From a virus (taxonomy: Duplodnaviria; Heunggongvirae; Uroviricota; Caudoviricetes), in the IMG/VR virus record IMGVR_UViG_2534681900_000010: DNA of 33,600 nucleotides. One strand, written 5' to 3'. Made by a program: the position numbers and the translations under genes. The first letter of the stretch is position 1; each line of letters starts with the position of its first letter. Shown here piece after piece: positions 3,830 to 25,529 of the stretch. The notes under the pieces were generated by a model. It made no database searches and had not been told where the DNA came from. It worked only from the letters and a program-made list of their open reading frames with translations.

Positions 3830-4101
3830 GTATTCGTATTGAAATTGGCGAACGTTATGTCGTTACCAGTGACAGCTTTCAGTTTATTCTCCACGAGAAA
3901 AAGAGAGCGGAAAGCGGTAAAAACGCCGGTCAGGAATGGCTGGCGGTGGTTGGTTATTACCCGAAATTAAGCCAGCTCGTTTCCGGCCTGATGCATCACG
4001 ATATTCTGACCGGAAGCGCAAAGTCTTTTGCTGATTTAAACGCGCAGGTTGAGCAACTCAGCAGGCGTTGTTCAGAGGCTTTTGGCTCATATGGCCGTTA
4101 A
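3826..4101 (+). CDS. Hypothetical early protein (91 aa)
   Basis: ORF whose stop (4099-4101) overlaps the A start codon region. No motif recognised. Confidence 0.5.
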   Translation: MSIRIEIGERYVVTSDSFQFILHEKKRAESGKNAGQEWLAVVGYYPKLSQLVSGLMHHDILTGSAKSFADLNAQVEQLSRRCSEAFGSYGR

Positions 4102-6400
4102 AGCCTCCGGGCGTTTTGTCCCTCCGTCAGCATTTGCCGCAGGCACCGGTAAGACGTTTACCGGTGCTTATGCATGGAACGCGCCACGCGAGGCTGTCGG
4201 GCGCGAAAGACCCCTTACACGTGACGAGATGCGTCAGGTGCAAGGTGTTTTATCCACGATTAACCGCCTGCCTTACTTTTTGCGCTCGCTGTTTACTTCA
4301 CGTTATGACTACATCCGGCGCAATAAAAGCCCGGTGCACGGGTTTTATTTCCTCACATCCACTTTTCAGCGTCGTTTATGGCCGCGCATTGAGCGTGTGA
4401 ATCAGCGCCATGAAATGAACACCGACGCGTCGTTGCTGTTTCTGGCAGAGCGTGACCACTATGCGCGCCTGCCGGGAATGAATGACAAGGAGCTGAAAAA
4501 GTTTGCTGCCCGTATCTCATCGCAGCTTTTCATGATGTATGAGGAACTCTGCGATGCCTGGGTTGATGCACATGGCGAAAAAGAATCGCTGTTTACGGAT
4601 GAGGCGCAGGCTCACCTCTATGGTCATGTTGCTGGCGCTGCACGTGCTTTCAATATTTCCCCGCTCTACTGGAAAAAATACCGTAAAGGACAGATGACCA
4701 CGAGGCAGGCATATTCTGCCATTGCCCGCCTGTTTAACGATGAGTGGTGGACTCATCAGCTTAAAGGCCAGCGTATGCGCTGGCATGAGGCGTTACTGAT
4801 TGCTGTCGGGGAGGTCAATAAAGACCGTTCTCCTTATGCCAGTAAACATGCCATTCGTGATGTGCGTGCACGCCGCCAGGCAAATCTGGAATTTCTTAAA
4901 TCGTGTGACCTCGAAAACAGGGAAACCGGCGAACGCATCGACCTTATCAGTAAGGTGATGGGCAGTATTTCTAATCCTGAAATTCGCCGGATGGAGCTGA
5001 TGAACACCATTGCCGGTATTGAGCGTTACGCCACCGCAGAGGGTGATGTGGGGATGTTTATCACGCTGACCACGCCGTCAAAGTATCACCCGACACGTCA
5101 GGTCGGAAAAGGCGAAAATAAAACCGTCCAGCTTAATCACGGCTGGAACGATGAGGCATTTAATCCAAAGGATGCGCAGCGTTATCTCTGCCGTATCTGG
5201 AGCCTGATGCGCACGGCATTCAAGGATAATGACTTACAGGTCTACGGTTTGCGTGTCGTCGAGCCACACCACGACGGAACGCCGCACTGGCATATGATGC
5301 TTTTTTGTAATCCACGCCAGCGTAACCAGATTATTGAAATCATGCGTCGCTACGCGCTCAAAGAGGATGGAGACGAAAGAGGAGCCGCGCGAAACCGTTT
5401 TCAGGCAAAACATCTTAACCGGGGCGGTGCTGCGGGGTATATCGCGAAATACATCTCAAAAAACATCGATGGCTATGCACTGGATGGTCAGCTCGATAAC
5501 GATACCGGCAGGCCGCTGAAAGATACTGCTGCGGCTGTTACCGCATGGGCGTCAACGTGGCGCATTCCGCAATTTAAAACGGTTGGTCTGCCGACAATGG
5601 GGGCTTACCGTGAACTACGCAAATTGCCTCGCGGCGTCAGCATTGCTGATGAGTTTGACGAGCGCGTCGAGGCTGCACGCGCCGCTGCAGACAGTGGTGA
5701 TTTTGCGTTGTATATCAGCGCGCAGGGCGGGGCAAATGTCCCGCGCGATTGTCAGACTGTCAGGGTCGCCCGTAGCCCGTCGGATGACGTTAACGAGTAC
5801 GAGGAAGAGGTCGAGAGAGCGGTCGGCATTTACGCGCCGCATCTCGGCGCGCGTCATATTCATATCACCAGAACGACGGACTGGCGCATTGTGCCGAAAG
5901 TTCCGGTCGTTGAGCCTTTGACTTTAAAAAGCGGCATCGCCGCGCCTCGGAGTCCTGTCAATAACTGTGGAAAGCTCACCGGTGGTGATACTTCGTCACC
6001 GGCTCCCACGCCTTCTGAACACGCCGCAGCAGTGCTTAATCTGGTAGATGACGGTGTTATTGAATGGAATGACCCGGTGGTCGTGAGGGCGCTCAGAGGC
6101 GCATTAAAATACGGCCTGAGAAGACCAAACCGTCAGCAAAGAAACGGAATACCGTTAAAACCGCATGAAATAGCACCATCGGCCAGGCTGACCCGGTCAG
6201 AACGAATGCAAATTACCCGTATCCGTGTTGACCTTGCTCAGAACGGTATCAGGCCTCAGCGATGGGAGCTTGAGGCGCTGGCGCGTGGGGCGACCGTAAA
6301 TTATGACGGGAAACAATTTACGTATCCGGTTGCTGATGAGTGGCCGGGATTTTTACAAACAGAAATTGTTTTTGGGATTAATAAGTTATCTCTAAGCTAA
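4091..6400 (+). CDS. A: Replication initiation endonuclease A (rolling-circle initiator)
   Basis: 769-aa product beginning MAVKASGRFVPPSAFAAGTGK..., recalled as highly similar to P2 gpA. ORF-track ORF 4049..6400 is trimmed to the ATG at 4091. Confidence 0.9.
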   Translation: MAVKASGRFVPPSAFAAGTGKTFTGAYAWNAPREAVGRERPLTRDEMRQVQGVLSTINRLPYFLRSLFTSRYDYIRRNKSPVHGFYFLTSTFQRRLWPRIERVNQRHEMNTDASLLFLAERDHYARLPGMNDKELKKFAARISSQLFMMYEELCDAWVDAHGEKESLFTDEAQAHLYGHVAGAARAFNISPLYWKKYRKGQMTTRQAYSAIARLFNDEWWTHQLKGQRMRWHEALLIAVGEVNKDRSPYASKHAIRDVRARRQANLEFLKSCDLENRETGERIDLISKVMGSISNPEIRRMELMNTIAGIERYATAEGDVGMFITLTTPSKYHPTRQVGKGENKTVQLNHGWNDEAFNPKDAQRYLCRIWSLMRTAFKDNDLQVYGLRVVEPHHDGTPHWHMMLFCNPRQRNQIIEIMRRYALKEDGDERGAARNRFQAKHLNRGGAAGYIAKYISKNIDGYALDGQLDNDTGRPLKDTAAAVTAWASTWRIPQFKTVGLPTMGAYRELRKLPRGVSIADEFDERVEAARAAADSGDFALYISAQGGANVPRDCQTVRVARSPSDDVNEYEEEVERAVGIYAPHLGARHIHITRTTDWRIVPKVPVVEPLTLKSGIAAPRSPVNNCGKLTGGDTSSPAPTPSEHAAAVLNLVDDGVIEWNDPVVVRALRGALKYGLRRPNRQQRNGIPLKPHEIAPSARLTRSERMQITRIRVDLAQNGIRPQRWELEALARGATVNYDGKQFTYPVADEWPGFLQTEIVFGINKLSLS

Positions 6401-6522: not shown

Positions 6523-7569
6523 ATGGCGGTAAAAGTTGTTGATCTTTTTTGCGGTGCTGGCGGTTTAACGCACGGCTTACATTTGGCCGGATTGGACGTT
6601 GTCGCAGGCATTGATTTAGAAGGTGAGTGTCGTGTTGCATACGAAAGCAATAATGATGCACTTTTTATTGAAAAAGATATATCTCTGGTGACAAAAGATG
6701 AAATCGAAAATCTTTTTGAAGGGGCAAGTGTTAAAGTATTGGCCGGATGTGCACCTTGTCAGCCATTTTCTAAATATACTCAGGGAAAAGATAAAAAAAA
6801 TGATAAAAAGTGGCCGTTATTATATGAGTTTGAACGTTTAATAAAAGACACGAAACCAGAAATAGTTACAATGGAAAACGTTCCTGATGTGACAAAACAT
6901 TCTGTCTATGATGATTTTTATAATACCTTAATAGCATTGGGTTATTATGTTTGGGCAAATAAGATTGAATGTGTAGATTTTGAGGTTCCGCAAAACAGAG
7001 TGAGGCATGTATTACTCGCATCTAAATTTGCGCCGATTTCTCTGATGAAACCACAAACATCGGTAAAGCTGACAGTTAGGGATTGCATTGGTAATTTACC
7101 TTCGATTGAAGCGGGACAAGCAGATCCAAAAGACCCTCTCCATAAGGCGAGTAGATTGAGTGAAATTAATCTCAAACGTATTCTACATTCAAAACCGGGG
7201 GGGACATGGAGGGATTGGCCTGCTGAATTAATCGCTTCATGTCATGCCAAGAAAAGTGGGCAGGGATATGCCAGTGTTTATGGTCGTATGTCTTGGGATA
7301 AACCGAGTCCAACGATAACTACACTTTGTTATGGTTTTGGTAATGGACGTTTTGGTCATCCCGAGCAGCATCGTGCAATCTCACTTAGGGAAGCAGCATT
7401 ACTTCAAACGTTTCCTGTTACATATTCATTTACCCAACCGGGCGAGCCGATCAAAATGAAAAATGTCGGGCGTATGATAGGTAATGCTGTTCCTGTAAAC
7501 TTAGGTAAAGCGATTGGTCTTTCAATAGTACATCATTTGAAAGAGTTTCACCCCGCCGCTCTTAAATAA
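6523..7569 (+). CDS. DNA (cytosine-5)-methyltransferase
   Basis: All canonical C5-MTase motifs are present in order: DLFCGAGG (motif I, AdoMet), GCAPCQPFS (motif IV, catalytic Cys), TMENVPDV (motif VI), VPQNRVRHVLL (motif VIII), MIGNAVPVNLGKAIG (motif X). Visibly AT-rich relative to the phage backbone. Confidence 0.9.
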   Translation: MAVKVVDLFCGAGGLTHGLHLAGLDVVAGIDLEGECRVAYESNNDALFIEKDISLVTKDEIENLFEGASVKVLAGCAPCQPFSKYTQGKDKKNDKKWPLLYEFERLIKDTKPEIVTMENVPDVTKHSVYDDFYNTLIALGYYVWANKIECVDFEVPQNRVRHVLLASKFAPISLMKPQTSVKLTVRDCIGNLPSIEAGQADPKDPLHKASRLSEINLKRILHSKPGGTWRDWPAELIASCHAKKSGQGYASVYGRMSWDKPSPTITTLCYGFGNGRFGHPEQHRAISLREAALLQTFPVTYSFTQPGEPIKMKNVGRMIGNAVPVNLGKAIGLSIVHHLKEFHPAALK

Positions 7570-8267
7570 GCCTGAGTATCAAGATAAGTTTGTATATTTT
7601 CAAGGATGCAGTTGAGATAATGAAAAACTTCATCCTTCATTTCTGTTAGTGTATCAATAGATGTATCTCTGCCTTTGTTTCTAAATGATTCAGAACCATG
7701 AGCAAGGTCGTTTCTGGCCTTTTTTATTGGAAGTAAATTGCAACCATTTCGCGTTATTTCTGAATCTGTATCTGCTGAGAAGCCATATTTTTCAGCGACT
7801 TCTCTAATTTTTCTAGCGTCAACATTTCCAGAAAATAACGGATTTTTATTTGATTGGATAAGTTTTTTGTGAGCGTTTAGCCACTCTTTAAATATAACTT
7901 TTGCAATGTTCCCTTGTGAGAAATCTATTTTCCCATTTGGTGATTGTAAACTATGAAATGCTACTCTTGTAAGGTTTTCATTTACAGTGTCTGCACATAA
8001 TGATTCATTAGACATTAAAACATTATGAATGTCTTCTATTGCATTGGAAATGGTTGCTTCAATGAGATTGTACAATATAATAAATGCATTAGCCTTTAAA
8101 ATATGAGTCATATCAATATCAATGGGTTGTTGTATAGGCGCATCGCTTGTATTCTCTTTATAGACTAGAGATGGTTTTTTGTTTATTAGTAACTGAATGA
8201 ATGAGAAGTATTCATTAATATCTTGCATTCTTTCTTGGAAAAGAATTTTACTTGTCATCTCCTCCAT
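7548..8267 (-). CDS. HEPN-like predicted RNase (239 aa), second gene of the DUF262 operon
   Basis: Rx4H motif in KKARNDLAHGSESF near the C-terminal third. Start ATG is 10 nt downstream of the DUF262 gene stop; its 3' end overlaps the convergent MTase by 22 bp. AT-rich. Confidence 0.6.
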   Translation of the reverse strand: MEEMTSKILFQERMQDINEYFSFIQLLINKKPSLVYKENTSDAPIQQPIDIDMTHILKANAFIILYNLIEATISNAIEDIHNVLMSNESLCADTVNENLTRVAFHSLQSPNGKIDFSQGNIAKVIFKEWLNAHKKLIQSNKNPLFSGNVDARKIREVAEKYGFSADTDSEITRNGCNLLPIKKARNDLAHGSESFRNKGRDTSIDTLTEMKDEVFHYLNCILENIQTYLDTQAYLRAAG

Positions 8268-8277
8268 TTACTTGGCC

Positions 8278-9423
8278 TCACTCCATATTTTCATCTTCAT
8301 TTTCATCTTCGTCGACAATATTTTCTGGAATGTCTTTCCCAAGCAACTTGTTTTTTACATATTCAATGCGTGCTTTAACTTTGGGTTTAGAGTTGCTGGC
8401 ATCTGAACGTGTGTGCGTGATAAACTCTTTCGAGTTGATCCAGTCATCAATATTTTTAGGAACTAAATTGGGTTCTTCCTCTAGTGCTAATGTTGCACCG
8501 ACGGCAAGAGCTTCGAAACGAATCCTAGGAACAGTGGTGGCGTTTTTCACCTTTCTGAAACCATTTGGGAAATGTGTATTAATGAATTGGCTCATTTTAT
8601 GAAATTTTTCCGCCAGCATAGCTGCGTTTTCATCTGTATATTCGGCATTTTTACGTTTTAAATAGGTTGTAAGAAATTCATCAACGCTTTTTCTGAAATC
8701 AAGATATTCTTCAGTGTAGGCAAAGTAGCGTAGTGCCAATTCTGGATATTCAGAGCGACGTTTTCTTGCATCTCCCAAAGGACAGATGCTATGAAATAGA
8801 GGATCTTCGGAAATTTCATTGATAAATGCAAGGAATGGCCCATCATGGCTACCTTGCCGTTGTTCCATTGTTGTTAGTTTTTTTCCGCCAGTATTCAGAC
8901 GGTCAAAAATTTCCCTTCTTGTCTCTTCGTCACAATGTTCTGTAAGTTCAATCATTCGAATAGTTTTTCTATCAAAACGTAGGCGACGGGGAGTACTGAA
9001 ATCAGAATATTTAAAACCATTGGCTGTGACTAATTTCTGCAGGCCTTCAAGAGTTAGTTTGTTATTGGTAAATTGGTGTAGGGTTCTTATTCGTTGGCTA
9101 CCGTCAACAATTTCAAGTCTACCTTCATTTTCACCTGAACCAATATCGGCAACGAATATGTAAGGTATAGGAAGATTTAAAAGCAGAGATTCAATGAAAC
9201 GGGATTTTTGCTTGTTGTTCCAGATAAACTCCCTTTGGTAGTCAGGTATAAAAAGCTCTGCCTCATCTTCTTCAAGACCATTCTGAAATTTGTCCACAAT
9301 AACACTTATCGGGAACTCACGTATTTCATGGTCAGTGATTTTTTGCATTTCAACTATGCTTTGATCTAAAAGCTCCTTTTCTTCTTTAGTTTTTGGGGTA
9401 TGTTCTGCTTTTTTTCTCGCCAT
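8278..9423 (-). CDS. DUF262 (ParB/GmrSD-N-like) domain protein (381 aa)
   Basis: N-terminal region ...FIPDYQREFIWNNKQKSRFIESLLLNLPIPYIFVADIGSGENEGRLEIVDGSQRIRTLHQF contains the DGxQR signature of DUF262. Acidic C-terminal tail (DEDENEDENME). RBS AGGAT about 10 nt upstream. AT-rich. Confidence 0.7.
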   Translation of the reverse strand: MARKKAEHTPKTKEEKELLDQSIVEMQKITDHEIREFPISVIVDKFQNGLEEDEAELFIPDYQREFIWNNKQKSRFIESLLLNLPIPYIFVADIGSGENEGRLEIVDGSQRIRTLHQFTNNKLTLEGLQKLVTANGFKYSDFSTPRRLRFDRKTIRMIELTEHCDEETRREIFDRLNTGGKKLTTMEQRQGSHDGPFLAFINEISEDPLFHSICPLGDARKRRSEYPELALRYFAYTEEYLDFRKSVDEFLTTYLKRKNAEYTDENAAMLAEKFHKMSQFINTHFPNGFRKVKNATTVPRIRFEALAVGATLALEEEPNLVPKNIDDWINSKEFITHTRSDASNSKPKVKARIEYVKNKLLGKDIPENIVDEDENEDENME

Positions 9424-9450
9424 GAGCTTATTATCCTACTATGCGTGTGA

Positions 9451-9539
9451 TTGCATTAAATTGCATGTTAAACAAAAGCATAATCTATATCAGTCAATCA
9501 GCCAGTGGCAAGGTGTTGTGATTACAATGCAACTGCATT
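9451..9539. promoter_or_regulatory. TGCAT-containing direct and inverted repeats upstream of the DUF262 operon
   Basis: TTGCAT at 9451-9456 and 9461-9466, one helical turn apart; inverted repeat AATGCA-AC-TGCATT at 9526-9539. Sits between the operon start (9423) and cos. Confidence 0.3.
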
Positions 9540-9723: not shown

Positions 9724-9745
9724 AAAAAAGCCGCCCGCAGGCGGC
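9724..9745 (-). terminator. Rho-independent terminator downstream of Q
   Basis: Hairpin GCCGCC-cgca-GGCGGC flanked on the plus strand by an A6 run, which is a T-run on the minus strand, immediately past the Q stop. Confidence 0.6.
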
Positions 9746-9750
9746 GATGT

Positions 9751-10785
9751 TCAGTCGTTGTCAGTGTCCAGTGAGTAGTTTTTAAAGCGGATGACCTCCT
9801 GACCGAGCCAGCCGTTTATCTCGCGGATCCTGTCCTGTAGCGGGATAAGCTCATTGCGGACAAAGACCTTTGCCACTTTCTCAATATCACCCAGCGACCC
9901 GACGTTCTCCGGCTTGCCGCCCATCAACTGAAAGGGGATGCGGTGCGCGTCCAGCAGGTCAGCGGCACTGGCTTTTTTGATATTAAAAAAATCGTCCTTC
10001 GTCGCCACTTCACTGAGGGGGATAATTTTAATGCCGTCGGCTTTCCCCTGCGGGGCATAGAGAAACAGATTTTTAAAGTTATTGCGGCCTTTCGACTTAA
10101 CCATGTTTTCGCGAAGCATTTCGATATCGTTGCGATCCTGCACGGCATCGGTGACGTACATGATGTATCCGGCATGTGCGCCATTTTCGTAATATTTGCG
10201 GCGGAACAGCGTGGCCGACTCATTCAGCCAGGCAGAGTTAAGGGCGCTGAGATATTCCGGCAGGCCGTACAGCTCCTGATTAATATCCGGCTCCAGCAGG
10301 TGAAACACGGAGCCGGGCGTGAAGGCTGTCGGCTCGTTGAAGGACGGCACCCACCAGTAAACATCCTCCTCCACACCACGGCGGGTATATTTTGCCGGTG
10401 AGGTTTCCAGTCTGATGACCTTACCGGTGGTGCTGTAACGCTTTTCCAGAAACGCATTACCGAACACGAGAAAATCCAGCACAAAGCGGCTGAAATCCTG
10501 TTGCGAAAGCCACGGATGCGGGATAAATGTCGAGGCCAGAATATTGCGTTTGACGTAAATCGGCGAGCTGTGATGCACGGCAGCACGCAGGCTTTTCGCC
10601 AGACCGGTAAAGCTGACCGGCGGCTCATACCATCTGCCGTTACTGATGCACTCGACGTAATCCAGAATGTCACGGCGGTCGAGTACCGGCACCGGCTCAC
10701 CAAAGGTGAATGCCTCCATTTTCGGGGCGCTGGCGGTCATTTTTTTTGCCGCAGGTTGCGGTGTTTTCCCTTTTTTCTTACTCAT
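9751..10785 (-). CDS. Q: Portal (capsid vertex) protein
   Basis: 344 aa, the size recalled for P2 gpQ. Adjacent to cos and divergent from O. Start overlaps the P stop. Confidence 0.9.
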   Translation of the reverse strand: MSKKKGKTPQPAAKKMTASAPKMEAFTFGEPVPVLDRRDILDYVECISNGRWYEPPVSFTGLAKSLRAAVHHSSPIYVKRNILASTFIPHPWLSQQDFSRFVLDFLVFGNAFLEKRYSTTGKVIRLETSPAKYTRRGVEEDVYWWVPSFNEPTAFTPGSVFHLLEPDINQELYGLPEYLSALNSAWLNESATLFRRKYYENGAHAGYIMYVTDAVQDRNDIEMLRENMVKSKGRNNFKNLFLYAPQGKADGIKIIPLSEVATKDDFFNIKKASAADLLDAHRIPFQLMGGKPENVGSLGDIEKVAKVFVRNELIPLQDRIREINGWLGQEVIRFKNYSLDTDND

Positions 10786-12557
10786 CAGTAAAACTCCAGA
10801 ATGGTGGATGTCAGCGGGGTGCTGATACCGGCGGTGAGTGGCTCATTTAACAGGGCGTGCATGGTCGCCCAGGCGAGGTCGGCGTGGCTGGCTTCCTCGC
10901 TGCGGCTGGCCTCATAGGTGGCGCTGCGTCCGCTGCTGGTCATGGTCTTGCGGATAGCCATAAACGAGCTGGTGATGTCGGTGGCGCTGACGTCATATTC
11001 CAGACAGCCACGGCGGATAACGTCTTTTGCCTTGAGCACCATTGCGGTTTTCATTTCCGGTGTGTAGCGGATATCGCGCGCGGCGGGATAGAACGAGCGC
11101 ACGAGCTGGAACACGCCGACACCGAGGCCGGTGGCATCAATACCGATGTATTCGACGTTGTATTTTTCGGTGAGTTTGCGGATGGATTCAGCCTGAGTGG
11201 CAAAGTCCATGCCTTTCCACTGGTGACGCTCAAGTATTCTGAATTTGCCACCGGCCACCACCGGCGGTGCCAGCACCACGCATCCGGCACTGTCGCCACG
11301 GTGTGACGGGTCGTAACCAATCCATACCGGGCGGGAGCCGAACGGATTCGCGGCAAACGGCGCATAGTCTTCCCATTCTTCCAGCGTGTCGACCATGCAG
11401 CGTTGCAGCTCCTCGAACGGGAACACCGACGCCTTGTCGTCAACAAATTCACACATGAACAGGTTTTTAAAATCGTCGGCGCTGTTTTCGCGTTTAAGCT
11501 GCTCAATGTCGAACAATGTGCAGCCGCCTTTCAGGGCGTCCTCAATGGTGACAATCTGCCGCCACTGGCCGTCCGCACAGAGAAGCCCACCGGCAAGGGC
11601 GTTATGACTGACGTCGATTTCCACGCGTTCGGCGGCGCTGGCGCGTCCCCGGTTAAACAGTTCACCGGACCAGAACGGGTAGGCGTCGTGCGCCAGCGTG
11701 GACGGGGTGGAGAAATAGGTCGAGCGCAGGTGACTCTGTGAGGCCATACCTGATGCCACCTTACGGAGCACCTGAAAATTCGGGATCCAGAAAATCTCGT
11801 CGACGTACAGGTCGCCGTTATGGCTCTGCGCGGTGTTGGAGTTGGTGCCGAGAAAAATCAGTTTTGCGCCGTTATTGCCGAGGACAATTGGGTCACCGGT
11901 CAGGTCAACGTCAACCAGCCGGGCAAAGGCGATGATGTATTCGCGGAACACATACGCCTGCGTTTTACTGGCCGACAGAAAAATCTGGTTATGACCGGTT
12001 TTCAGGGCGCGCAGCAGCGCCTCGCGGGAAAAATAAAATGTCGCGCCAATCTGGCGGGATTTCAGGATATCGCGGATGCGGTGCTCAAGCCCGGCGCGAT
12101 ACCAGTGCAACTGATAGTCGAAAGACTGCTCAAAGAAAATCTGCTCCAGCTTTTCGATGGCTTCGTCACTGAAAAAATTCTTTTTCGGTTTGCGCCGCCC
12201 GCCTTTGTTGCGGTTAGCGACGTTCGGATTAAGGTCTGCCTCGTTGCCGGTCTGGCTGTAGCGATTTACCCGTGCCAGTCGTTCAATCTGGCGTCCCAGC
12301 AGGTCAATTTCCTTGAAGTCACCGCCGGTTTTCTGCGGTTTGATGATGAGCTGGGTCAGCCGCGCTTCCAGGCTCATTTCGACACGGCTGATGGGGGCAA
12401 CGCTGTCCCAGCCGTCGCGCTGTTTCCAGCTCTGCACCGTCGGGCGTTTCATCTGCAACATGGCGGCAATCTGCGGCACGGAAAACCCCTGCCAGTACAG
12501 CAGTGCCGCCTGACGACGCGGGTCGTGTAAAAGAGTGGTGTCTGTGGTGATGGTCAT
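10785..12557 (-). CDS. P: Terminase large (ATPase) subunit
   Basis: About 590-aa product upstream of Q on the minus strand. Start taken at the ATG at 12555-12557 (MTITTD...); an alternative start is 12587. Confidence 0.9.
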   Translation of the reverse strand: MTITTDTTLLHDPRRQAALLYWQGFSVPQIAAMLQMKRPTVQSWKQRDGWDSVAPISRVEMSLEARLTQLIIKPQKTGGDFKEIDLLGRQIERLARVNRYSQTGNEADLNPNVANRNKGGRRKPKKNFFSDEAIEKLEQIFFEQSFDYQLHWYRAGLEHRIRDILKSRQIGATFYFSREALLRALKTGHNQIFLSASKTQAYVFREYIIAFARLVDVDLTGDPIVLGNNGAKLIFLGTNSNTAQSHNGDLYVDEIFWIPNFQVLRKVASGMASQSHLRSTYFSTPSTLAHDAYPFWSGELFNRGRASAAERVEIDVSHNALAGGLLCADGQWRQIVTIEDALKGGCTLFDIEQLKRENSADDFKNLFMCEFVDDKASVFPFEELQRCMVDTLEEWEDYAPFAANPFGSRPVWIGYDPSHRGDSAGCVVLAPPVVAGGKFRILERHQWKGMDFATQAESIRKLTEKYNVEYIGIDATGLGVGVFQLVRSFYPAARDIRYTPEMKTAMVLKAKDVIRRGCLEYDVSATDITSSFMAIRKTMTSSGRSATYEASRSEEASHADLAWATMHALLNEPLTAGISTPLTSTILEFY

Positions 12558-12730
12558 GAATACCTCGCCGTGATGAATACACGGCAAGGCTACTGAGTCG
12601 CGCCCCGCGATTCGCTAAGGTGCTGTTGTGTCAGTGATAAGCCATCCGGGACTGATGGCGGAGGATGCGCATCGTCGGGAAACTGATGCCGACATGTGAC
12701 TCCTCTAATCACTATTCAGGACTCCTGACA
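12558..12730. promoter_or_regulatory. Divergent late promoter region (P operon leftward, O operon rightward)
   Basis: Intergenic region between divergent P and O. In P2 these are Ogr-activated late promoters. Specific sites not resolved. Confidence 0.5.
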
Positions 12731-24935: not shown

Positions 24936-25529
24936 ATGTTTACTAAGCGACGATTAAAAAATATTAACTGGGAGGCAAGTTCAGTGATTCTTGCTATGGT
25001 TCTCTTTGTTGGAAATATATTTTATACAAATCATCGTGATGATATAAGCATGGAGGCTGAGAGGGACAGTATCAGAACAATGTTTGCATATGAAATCGCT
25101 AATAACCATCGCGCTCTCACTTTTCTTGATAAAACGAGATATATTGGCTTTGACGAAAATTCGGAGCATTTTGTTGGCGAGCCTTTTGCCATTAATGTCA
25201 AATCATTAGGGGGGCCTCGCTTACAGATTGCATTAAACCAGAGTGATAAAGTGTTTAAATCCTACTTCAGCGAATTAAGTAAGCTTGATAAAGAGGATGT
25301 TACTCTTCTTATGGACTATTACCATGAGCAAAGCATCCTGCTGGAGCGTGTAAAATCTACGTTACAGAAGATGAAAAGTGGTAATGATATTAAAGTTGAT
25401 ATTGATGGTTACTTATTAGAAGAACACTTCATGAATGAGCTTAATCTTTCTAATATTTTGCTTAAACGCTATAGCCATTTGTTGTCACAACACGCCAAAG
25501 AACATAAAACAAAAGATTTACATAATTGA
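24936..25529 (+). CDS. Hypothetical membrane-anchored protein (197 aa) at the Z/fun accessory locus
   Basis: AT-rich ORF between G and FI. RBS AAGGTG 6 nt upstream. N-terminal hydrophobic segment SSVILAMVLFVGNIFY after a basic MFTKRRLK start. No recognisable catalytic motif. Confidence 0.6.
   Translation: MFTKRRLKNINWEASSVILAMVLFVGNIFYTNHRDDISMEAERDSIRTMFAYEIANNHRALTFLDKTRYIGFDENSEHFVGEPFAINVKSLGGPRLQIALNQSDKVFKSYFSELSKLDKEDVTLLMDYYHEQSILLERVKSTLQKMKSGNDIKVDIDGYLLEEHFMNELNLSNILLKRYSHLLSQHAKEHKTKDLHN

Follow-up and report, generated by a model that had tools for sequence, protein, structure and literature searches.

A candidate three-gene cassette of C5-cytosine methyltransferase, DUF262 and HEPN genes at a defence hotspot of a P2-like prophage

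The window analysed here, 33,600 nucleotides (nt) of a Caudoviricetes virus record in IMG/VR (IMGVR_UViG_2534681900_000010), carries three genes that are the subject of this work. The first encodes a DUF262 protein of 381 amino acids (aa) on the minus strand (8278..9423). It is followed, after a gap of exactly 10 nt (tga-ggccaagtaa-ATG), by a stand-alone HEPN gene of the MAE_28990/RiboL-PSP type on the same strand (7548..8267), whose 239-aa product is a predicted RNase effector. The third gene encodes a C5-cytosine DNA methyltransferase (MTase) of 348 aa on the plus strand (6523..7569). It runs convergently towards the DUF262-HEPN operon, and the MTase and HEPN genes share 22 nt at their 3' ends (7548..7569). 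This MTase is the probable third component and would serve for self-marking. An earlier note, made from the letters alone, had presented the two minus-strand genes as an undescribed two-gene defence module. It described both reading frames, the 10-nt gap and the operon correctly, and the motifs it picked out (PDYQREFIW, IVDGSQRIRTL, ARNDLAHG and an acidic tail) are all present. The feature is real and its domain-level annotation was right, with the amendment that it is more likely a three-gene than a two-gene unit.

The genes form a cargo cassette in a prophage resembling Peduovirus P24B2, where they occupy P2 hotspot #1. On the left the cargo is flanked by the P2-type replication endonuclease gene (4049..6400) and on the right by the portal gene (9751..10785), which together with the terminase genes occupies 9751..12587. 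Between 6500 and 9500 the GC content falls to 0.34-0.40, from about 0.55 on either side. The P2 site between the replication endonuclease and portal genes is a defence hotspot (Rousset 2022; Vassallo 2022), as the earlier note held, and the cargos tested there are anti-phage systems (Vassallo 2022). The window is near-identical to Peduovirus P24B2 (NC_049387), with 3 single-nucleotide polymorphisms and 1 indel across 6523-9423. An identical trio is present in 3 of 5,426 complete E. coli genomes, and 4 further genomes of that set have a variant of about 78% identity at the same P2 position.

The DUF262 protein matches Pfam GmrSD_N/DUF262 (PF03235) at 4.7e-28. It combines a ParB-DUF262 domain with a helical C-terminal domain similar to 'ParBDB', an architecture that has been described by Li et al. 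2025. The AF2 (AlphaFold2) model, with a pLDDT of 80.9, has a ParB/Srx-like N-terminal domain and an all-helical C-terminal domain. Its best Foldseek matches in the PDB are BrxU (7p9k, probability 0.99) and the ParB/Noc CTPases; PDB-sequence searches with profiles from the DUF262 and HEPN alignments returned no useful relative. Across 78 homologues the motifs QRxxxW (Q63 R64 W68), DGSQR (D107-R111) and FxRLN (173-177) are invariant, as are RxRFE (300-304) and RSDxSNS (339-345) in the C-terminal domain. Conservation in the family is unusually high (55-65% identity across phyla). The acidic tail, DEDENEDENME, is not conserved. PHROGs places the protein in phrog_2598 (5e-133), labelled 'unknown function'. 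We predict that it is an NTP-dependent DNA sensor.

Two groups of known systems are brought to mind by these matches and neither can accommodate the cassette. The GmrSD, BrxU and SspE enzymes (type IV-like) are rejected because there is no DUF1524 His-Me finger nuclease and the C-terminal domain is all-helical; no Pfam match to DUF1524 (PF07510) or HNH was found in any of the three cassette proteins, which agrees with the earlier note that this DUF262 protein has no such nuclease fused to it. The second is Menshen (NsnABC). The highest PADLOC score is for NsnA (1.3e-54, positions 41-377 of 385), above that for PD-T4-2_A (1.3e-34, 55-357 of 363), and the likeness to NsnA covers nearly the full length, including the ParB-DUF262 domain and the helical C-terminal domain. 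The cassette has neither the NsnB ABC-ATPase nor the NsnC effector, however. We find no ATPase matches, and what lies downstream is the HEPN gene and then the methylase, so Menshen membership is rejected too.

The HEPN protein matches HEPN_MAE_28990 (PF18737) at 7.6e-18 and HEPN_RiboL-PSP (PF18735) at 7.6e-7 in Pfam, and the MAE_28990 assignment is also made by NCBI PGAP. Every one of 80 HEPN sequences has the Rx4H residues R185 and H190, and the 239-aa protein has the helical fold of a HEPN domain. The identification of HEPN from its Rx4H motif was thus sound, and for both proteins the profile searches that the note had asked for give assignments far beyond chance. At E<=1e-3 the family takes in 1,702 of 1.84 billion cluster representatives (50% identity clusters). 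The protein belongs to phrog_3846, of 'unknown function' in PHROGs, and PADLOC has no model for the MAE_28990 HEPN partner. Neither the HEPN nor the DUF262 protein matches PD-(D/E)xK, HNH, GIY-YIG or PLD nucleases in Pfam or PADLOC. For lack of an endonuclease with a recognised DNase fold we do not class the cassette as a classical type II restriction-modification (R-M) system, although it has the methyltransferase of one.

That methyltransferase is a full-length match to Pfam DNA_methylase (PF00145, 1.8e-54) and also matches TIGR00675 dcm (2.9e-36). Its PCQ and ENV catalytic motifs show no variation. It is the slowest-evolving of the three proteins. At locus L062, for example, the identities to the window are 35% for DUF262, 22% for HEPN and 61% for the MTase. 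Its target-recognition region (TRD) is conserved, which suggests, from sequence comparison, that the family has one fixed specificity. The closest PDB matches (the C-terminal region of DNMT1, M.HaeIII and M.HhaI) are uninformative about what that specificity is. The protein is not the E. coli Dcm orthologue, since PRK10458 is matched at just 2e-4. As a side observation, the closest solved structure to residues 245-335, which comprise the end of the TRD and motifs IX and X, is the eukaryotic DNMT1 (about 4e-21), and the bacterial M.HhaI and M.HaeIII match the N-terminal half only.

The case for treating the three genes together is based on gene contexts sampled around homologues of each member of the pair, HEPN and DUF262. 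Searching IMG/VR with the HEPN alignment brought up 55 loci, which were examined together with the loci collected earlier by means of home-built hidden Markov models; the taxonomic breadth rests on the IMG/VR loci and 12 gene-context look-ups. At 41 of the 43 loci with distinct HEPN sequences the pair has, as its immediate neighbour, a C5-MTase of the same family, and one of the two exceptions runs into a contig edge. At 35 loci the MTase gene is convergent and downstream of the HEPN gene, at a spacing of -104 to +39 nt in nearly all; two have larger gaps. Such a convergent arrangement of M and R genes is typical of mobile R-M systems. At four other loci the genes are co-directional in the order MTase, DUF262, HEPN, and a fifth (L059) is flanked by a C5-MTase gene on each side.

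The arrangement of the window, with DUF262 followed by HEPN and a convergent C5-MTase, is found in Vibrio cholerae chromosomes outside prophages (HEPN 50% identical), in Thalassotalea, in Cytophagales (Bacteroidota), in Achromobacter (with an adjoining Vsr gene), in the Moraxella phages Mcat24-32 and on another metagenomic contig, and the trio is also carried by many IMG/VR prophages. The MTase is kept with the pair across phyla, in either gene order and at sites of insertion that are unrelated, which argues strongly that the two are functionally linked. The functional unit in this window is most likely all three genes, 6523-9423, as judged from comparative gene content. The description of the locus as a two-gene module therefore gives way, the adjacent MTase having been overlooked.

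Looking from the MTase outward gives a second view of the same linkage. Among its 80 closest relatives on viral contigs, 56 stand beside a DUF262-HEPN pair. The other 24 (IMG/VR, L099-L151) adjoin GHKL proteins (HATPase_c_3) of about 650-760 aa, usually in convergent orientation and often accompanied by Vsr or a NERD-UvrD helicase; one GHKL partner has a weak match to the Shedu-type nuclease SduA_C. On a Pseudomonas Tn7-like element and on one metagenomic contig a GHKL-ATPase gene lies between the HEPN and MTase genes. These two loci thereby carry both effector modules, DUF262-HEPN and GHKL, with a single shared MTase (the GHKL pairing is at L010 6978-8927 and L159 3287-5338). Since DUF262-HEPN and GHKL partners alternate in this way, we regard the MTase family as the modification half of R-M-like modules whose partners are exchangeable.

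The closest tested relative of the pair is PD-T4-2 of E. coli ECOR65, which has validated activity against T4 and is entered as 'DUF262, HEPN' (Vassallo 2022). Cloned in K-12 it reduces T4 plaquing, and its deletion sensitises ECOR65 (Vassallo 2022). Its proteins are RCO39066.1 and an unannotated open reading frame (ORF) on the ECOR65 contig QOYX01000002. We compared the window with it through the PADLOC profiles and the published HHsearch table. Both are two-gene operons from E. coli with DUF262 first and a small HEPN gene second, and the HEPN partners fall in the same Pfam families, PD-T4-2B having HHsearch values of 97.8% for PF18735 (RiboL-PSP) and 96.9% for PF18737 (MAE_28990) (Vassallo 2022). 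They differ in the HEPN protein, 239 aa in the window versus about 165 aa, and in the conserved C5-MTase next to the window pair. The DUF262 protein matches the PD-T4-2_A profile at the level of a paralogue only, since NsnA scores higher, and the PD-T4-2_B profile has no match at E<=1 in the window HEPN protein, nor any in 8 distant members of its family. For these two reasons we consider the window proteins paralogues of PD-T4-2 and not orthologues. By this profile evidence the DUF262-HEPN core is a paralogue of a validated system against T-even phages. The word 'undescribed' in the earlier note must then be withdrawn, because PD-T4-2 is a named and validated DUF262-HEPN pair. A match to a characterised named system, which the note itself said would count against its claim, exists in architecture and fails in orthology. 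The literature searched contains no paper that characterises the mechanism of PD-T4-2.

In our overall reading, the cassette combines an MTase that marks resident DNA with a DUF262 reader of DNA modification state and, under its control, a HEPN RNase that arrests the infected cell. We would give this reading an even chance of being right. The MTase would set a fixed m5C mark on the resident DNA, host and prophage alike. NTP-dependent reading of the modification state would fall to the DUF262 protein, a ParB-like NTPase that lacks a nuclease domain and would bind DNA through its helical domain. On meeting DNA that has no mark or has a foreign modification it would release or activate its HEPN partner. 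HEPN, as a metal-independent RNase, would then cut cellular tRNA or mRNA, and the resulting growth arrest or abortive infection would halt the growth of the phage. What the analysis establishes is the gene content, domain identities, conserved catalytic motifs, folds, hotspot location and conserved three-gene linkage described above; the sensor and effector roles, the targeting of RNA and the protective role of methylation are inferred.

There is precedent for the separate parts of this scheme. DUF262 reads DNA modification state in SspE, GmrSD and BrxU, where a separate DUF1524 domain cuts the DNA. SspABCD-SspE, GmrSD and BrxU resemble the cassette in that a host DNA-modification module is combined with a DUF262 NTPase that reads the mark and controls a nuclease effector. 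In the window the mark would be m5C and not the phosphorothioate of SspABCD-SspE, and the effector is a separate HEPN protein, of RNase type, instead of a fused DUF1524 His-Me DNase. DARNA (PD-T7-3) is a precedent for HEPN tRNases that are activated by DNA. A stronger version of the reading is that the cassette amounts to an R-M system with an RNase in the place of R: unmarked DNA would cause the DUF262 NTPase to unleash HEPN in an epigenetically gated abortive infection, and the MTase family would be a modification hub shared by interchangeable modules, DUF262-HEPN or GHKL-ATPase/nuclease and in some loci both. We offer this version tentatively, as a possibility worth stating.

Several observations weigh against our reading. 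The 1.8 kb clone of PD-T4-2 works with no methylase (Vassallo 2022). No methylase adjoins the pair at any of the five cyanobacterial loci that belong to the same HEPN subfamily as the window. They come from Microcoleus, Dapis, Lyngbya and two metagenomic contigs on which the neighbouring genes are photosystem or cyanobacterial ones (L005, L155, L156, L158, L160). The HEPN gene is intact in all of them and the DUF262 gene in four, Microcoleus having a 187-aa truncation. The Klebsiella P2-like phage ST16-OXA48phi5.4 has a pair with no MTase beside its tail-fibre genes (L073 2926-4829), consisting of an NsnA-like DUF262 protein and a HEPN_RiboL-PSP partner (3e-7). A similar case is the E. coli phage vB_EcoM-689R6 (L072 2923-4634), in which an NsnA-like DUF262 gene and a small downstream gene lie beside the integrase gene, again with no MTase. 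The small partner in this phage has no Pfam match, and the PD-T4-2_B profile matches the partner in neither phage. In the P24B2 record the MTase is frameshifted yet the DUF262 and HEPN genes are intact. Also, the ParB-like domain of the DUF262 protein may itself be a nuclease, and the literature searched holds no experiment on the MTase-DUF262-HEPN trio. From the cyanobacterial, phage and P24B2 cases, in which no intact MTase adjoins the pair, we conclude that the DUF262-HEPN core can stand alone in some lineages.

The P24B2 frameshift deserves a closer look. The MTase gene of the window contains a run of seven G (7190..7196, plus strand) where the P-G-G of the conserved PGGTW is encoded. The P24B2 record (NC_049387.1; L070 3747-3754) has G8 in place of G7, and this splits the MTase into ORFs of 234 and 37 aa. 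The additional G may be a homopolymer sequencing error, or it may be real slippage that switches the methylase off. We do not claim phase variation through this tract, as the run is not conserved among MTase homologues.

If these exceptions are given full weight, the cassette becomes two independent cargos: a self-sufficient abortive-infection or type IV-like pair resembling PD-T4-2, and an unrelated orphan C5-methylase. The pair would be triggered by a phage cue such as modified DNA or a phage protein, the methylase would shield the P2-like phage DNA from host restriction, and methylation would be irrelevant to how the pair tells self from non-self. The small PD-T4-2 clone, the pairs with no MTase in cyanobacteria and in ST16-OXA48phi5.4 and the broken MTase of P24B2 all fit such an arrangement, as does the occurrence of the MTase family with no pair at 24 of 80 loci. 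Yet outside the cyanobacteria the same MTase family adjoins essentially every locus, in unrelated contexts and phyla. It does so in two gene orders and often with overlapping 3' ends, and a chance hitch-hiker would not outlast such rearrangement. The 56 of 80 viral-contig relatives that stand beside a pair argue in the same direction. We therefore judge the two-cargo arrangement unlikely, though it is a serious contender both in its division of the genes and in the separate triggers and duties it assigns to them.

The combination of families has been seen before. Anantharaman et al. 2013 tabulated a neighbourhood of MAE_28990 HEPN, ParB nuclease and DNA methylase, and theirs is the one mention of MAE_28990 in the literature searched. 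These are exactly the three families of the window, and all three are present at 41 of the 43 distinct loci. What they give is a computational table entry with a generic hypothesis, that HEPN genes embedded in R-M systems have a PrrC-like role (Anantharaman et al. 2013); the entry has no experiments behind it and no defence-system name.

Applied to this cassette, PrrC-like logic would make two layers as in PrrC/EcoprrI. The MTase and DUF262 protein would be a true R-M system in which DUF262 cuts or nicks unmethylated DNA, and HEPN would be a latent suicide RNase kept inactive by DUF262 and freed only when a phage inhibits the R-M layer. Besides the 2013 proposal, the tight coupling of the two genes across their 10-nt gap is in its favour, and so is the PADLOC REase_II model PDLC03418, which matches the DUF262 domain weakly (1.2e-6). 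By that match, DUF262 proteins are among the catalogued 'type II REases'. The difficulty is that the DUF262 protein has no recognised DNase fold, and that in SspE, GmrSD and BrxU the DUF262 domain is the NTPase and sensor and leaves the cutting to DUF1524. HEPN is moreover kept at essentially every locus, and so is not an optional add-on. PrrC-EcoprrI and DARNA (PD-T7-3) do share with the window a HEPN Rx4H effector, gated by an R-M complex in PrrC and by DNA in DARNA; the HEPN subfamily and its partners differ, the cassette has no ABC-ATPase domain, and its RNase activity is predicted. We are doubtful of a two-layer system of this type and rate it well below an arrangement in which DUF262 is only the reader.

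Defence itself could be at most a side effect. The cassette could be a selfish addiction module, stabilising the prophage by post-segregational killing, with HEPN as toxin and the MTase, the DUF262 protein or both as the restraint. R-M-like cassettes can act as addiction modules, and this general capacity speaks for the idea. HEPN proteins are common as toxins of toxin-antitoxin systems, and the cassette travels on mobile elements such as prophages and Tn7-like elements. Against this, the tested cargos of the hotspot are anti-phage systems, and PD-T4-2, the closest tested relative, defends its native strain against T4. The cyanobacterial copies are chromosomal and partly syntenic (near clpB in Microcoleus and Lyngbya) with no obvious mobile elements. 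We consider addiction very improbable as the main function.

It is important to ask what would follow if marking, sensing and arrest are coupled as we propose. DUF262 proteins are recurrent defence sensors (GmrSD, BrxU, SspE, Menshen, Dazbog, PD-T4-2), and this cassette bears on how their reading of modification is coupled to an effector supplied in trans. It is compact (about 3 kb), native to E. coli, carried on a P2-like phage and equipped with its own methylase, and the coupling to that methylase is its specific interest. If our reading is true, the logic of restriction-modification extends from the cutting of DNA to abortive infection at the level of RNA, and a widespread but unannotated pair of phage genes, phrog_2598 and phrog_3846, is explained. 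If methylation turns out to be irrelevant, the locus is one more member of the PD-T4-2-like group.

The remaining features of the locus are minor. A candidate sigma-70-like promoter for the DUF262-HEPN operon (9482..9511, minus strand) reads TTGCCA-18-TAGATT, with 9/12 matches. It lies within an AT-rich spacer of 327 nt beyond the portal gene terminator. We call it a candidate because a promoter scan of the region finds no more sites than shuffling leads one to expect. A loose repeat, TG(T/C)AATCACA, seen by eye on the minus strand at 9446-9457 and 9517-9526, stands on both sides of this promoter-like site, upstream of DUF262, and is a possible operator. The right boundary of the cargo is the intrinsic terminator of the upstream portal gene (9730..9745, minus strand), GCCGCCTGCGGGCGGC then TTTTTT.

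Elsewhere in the window there is a second low-GC patch (about 0.40), in which a 197-aa ORF at 24936-25529 on the plus strand directly follows the tail-fibre assembly gene. The position after that gene is the second P2 defence hotspot (Vassallo 2022). The ORF has no Pfam or PADLOC match, and it matches phrog_3829 (unknown function) at 5.7e-137.

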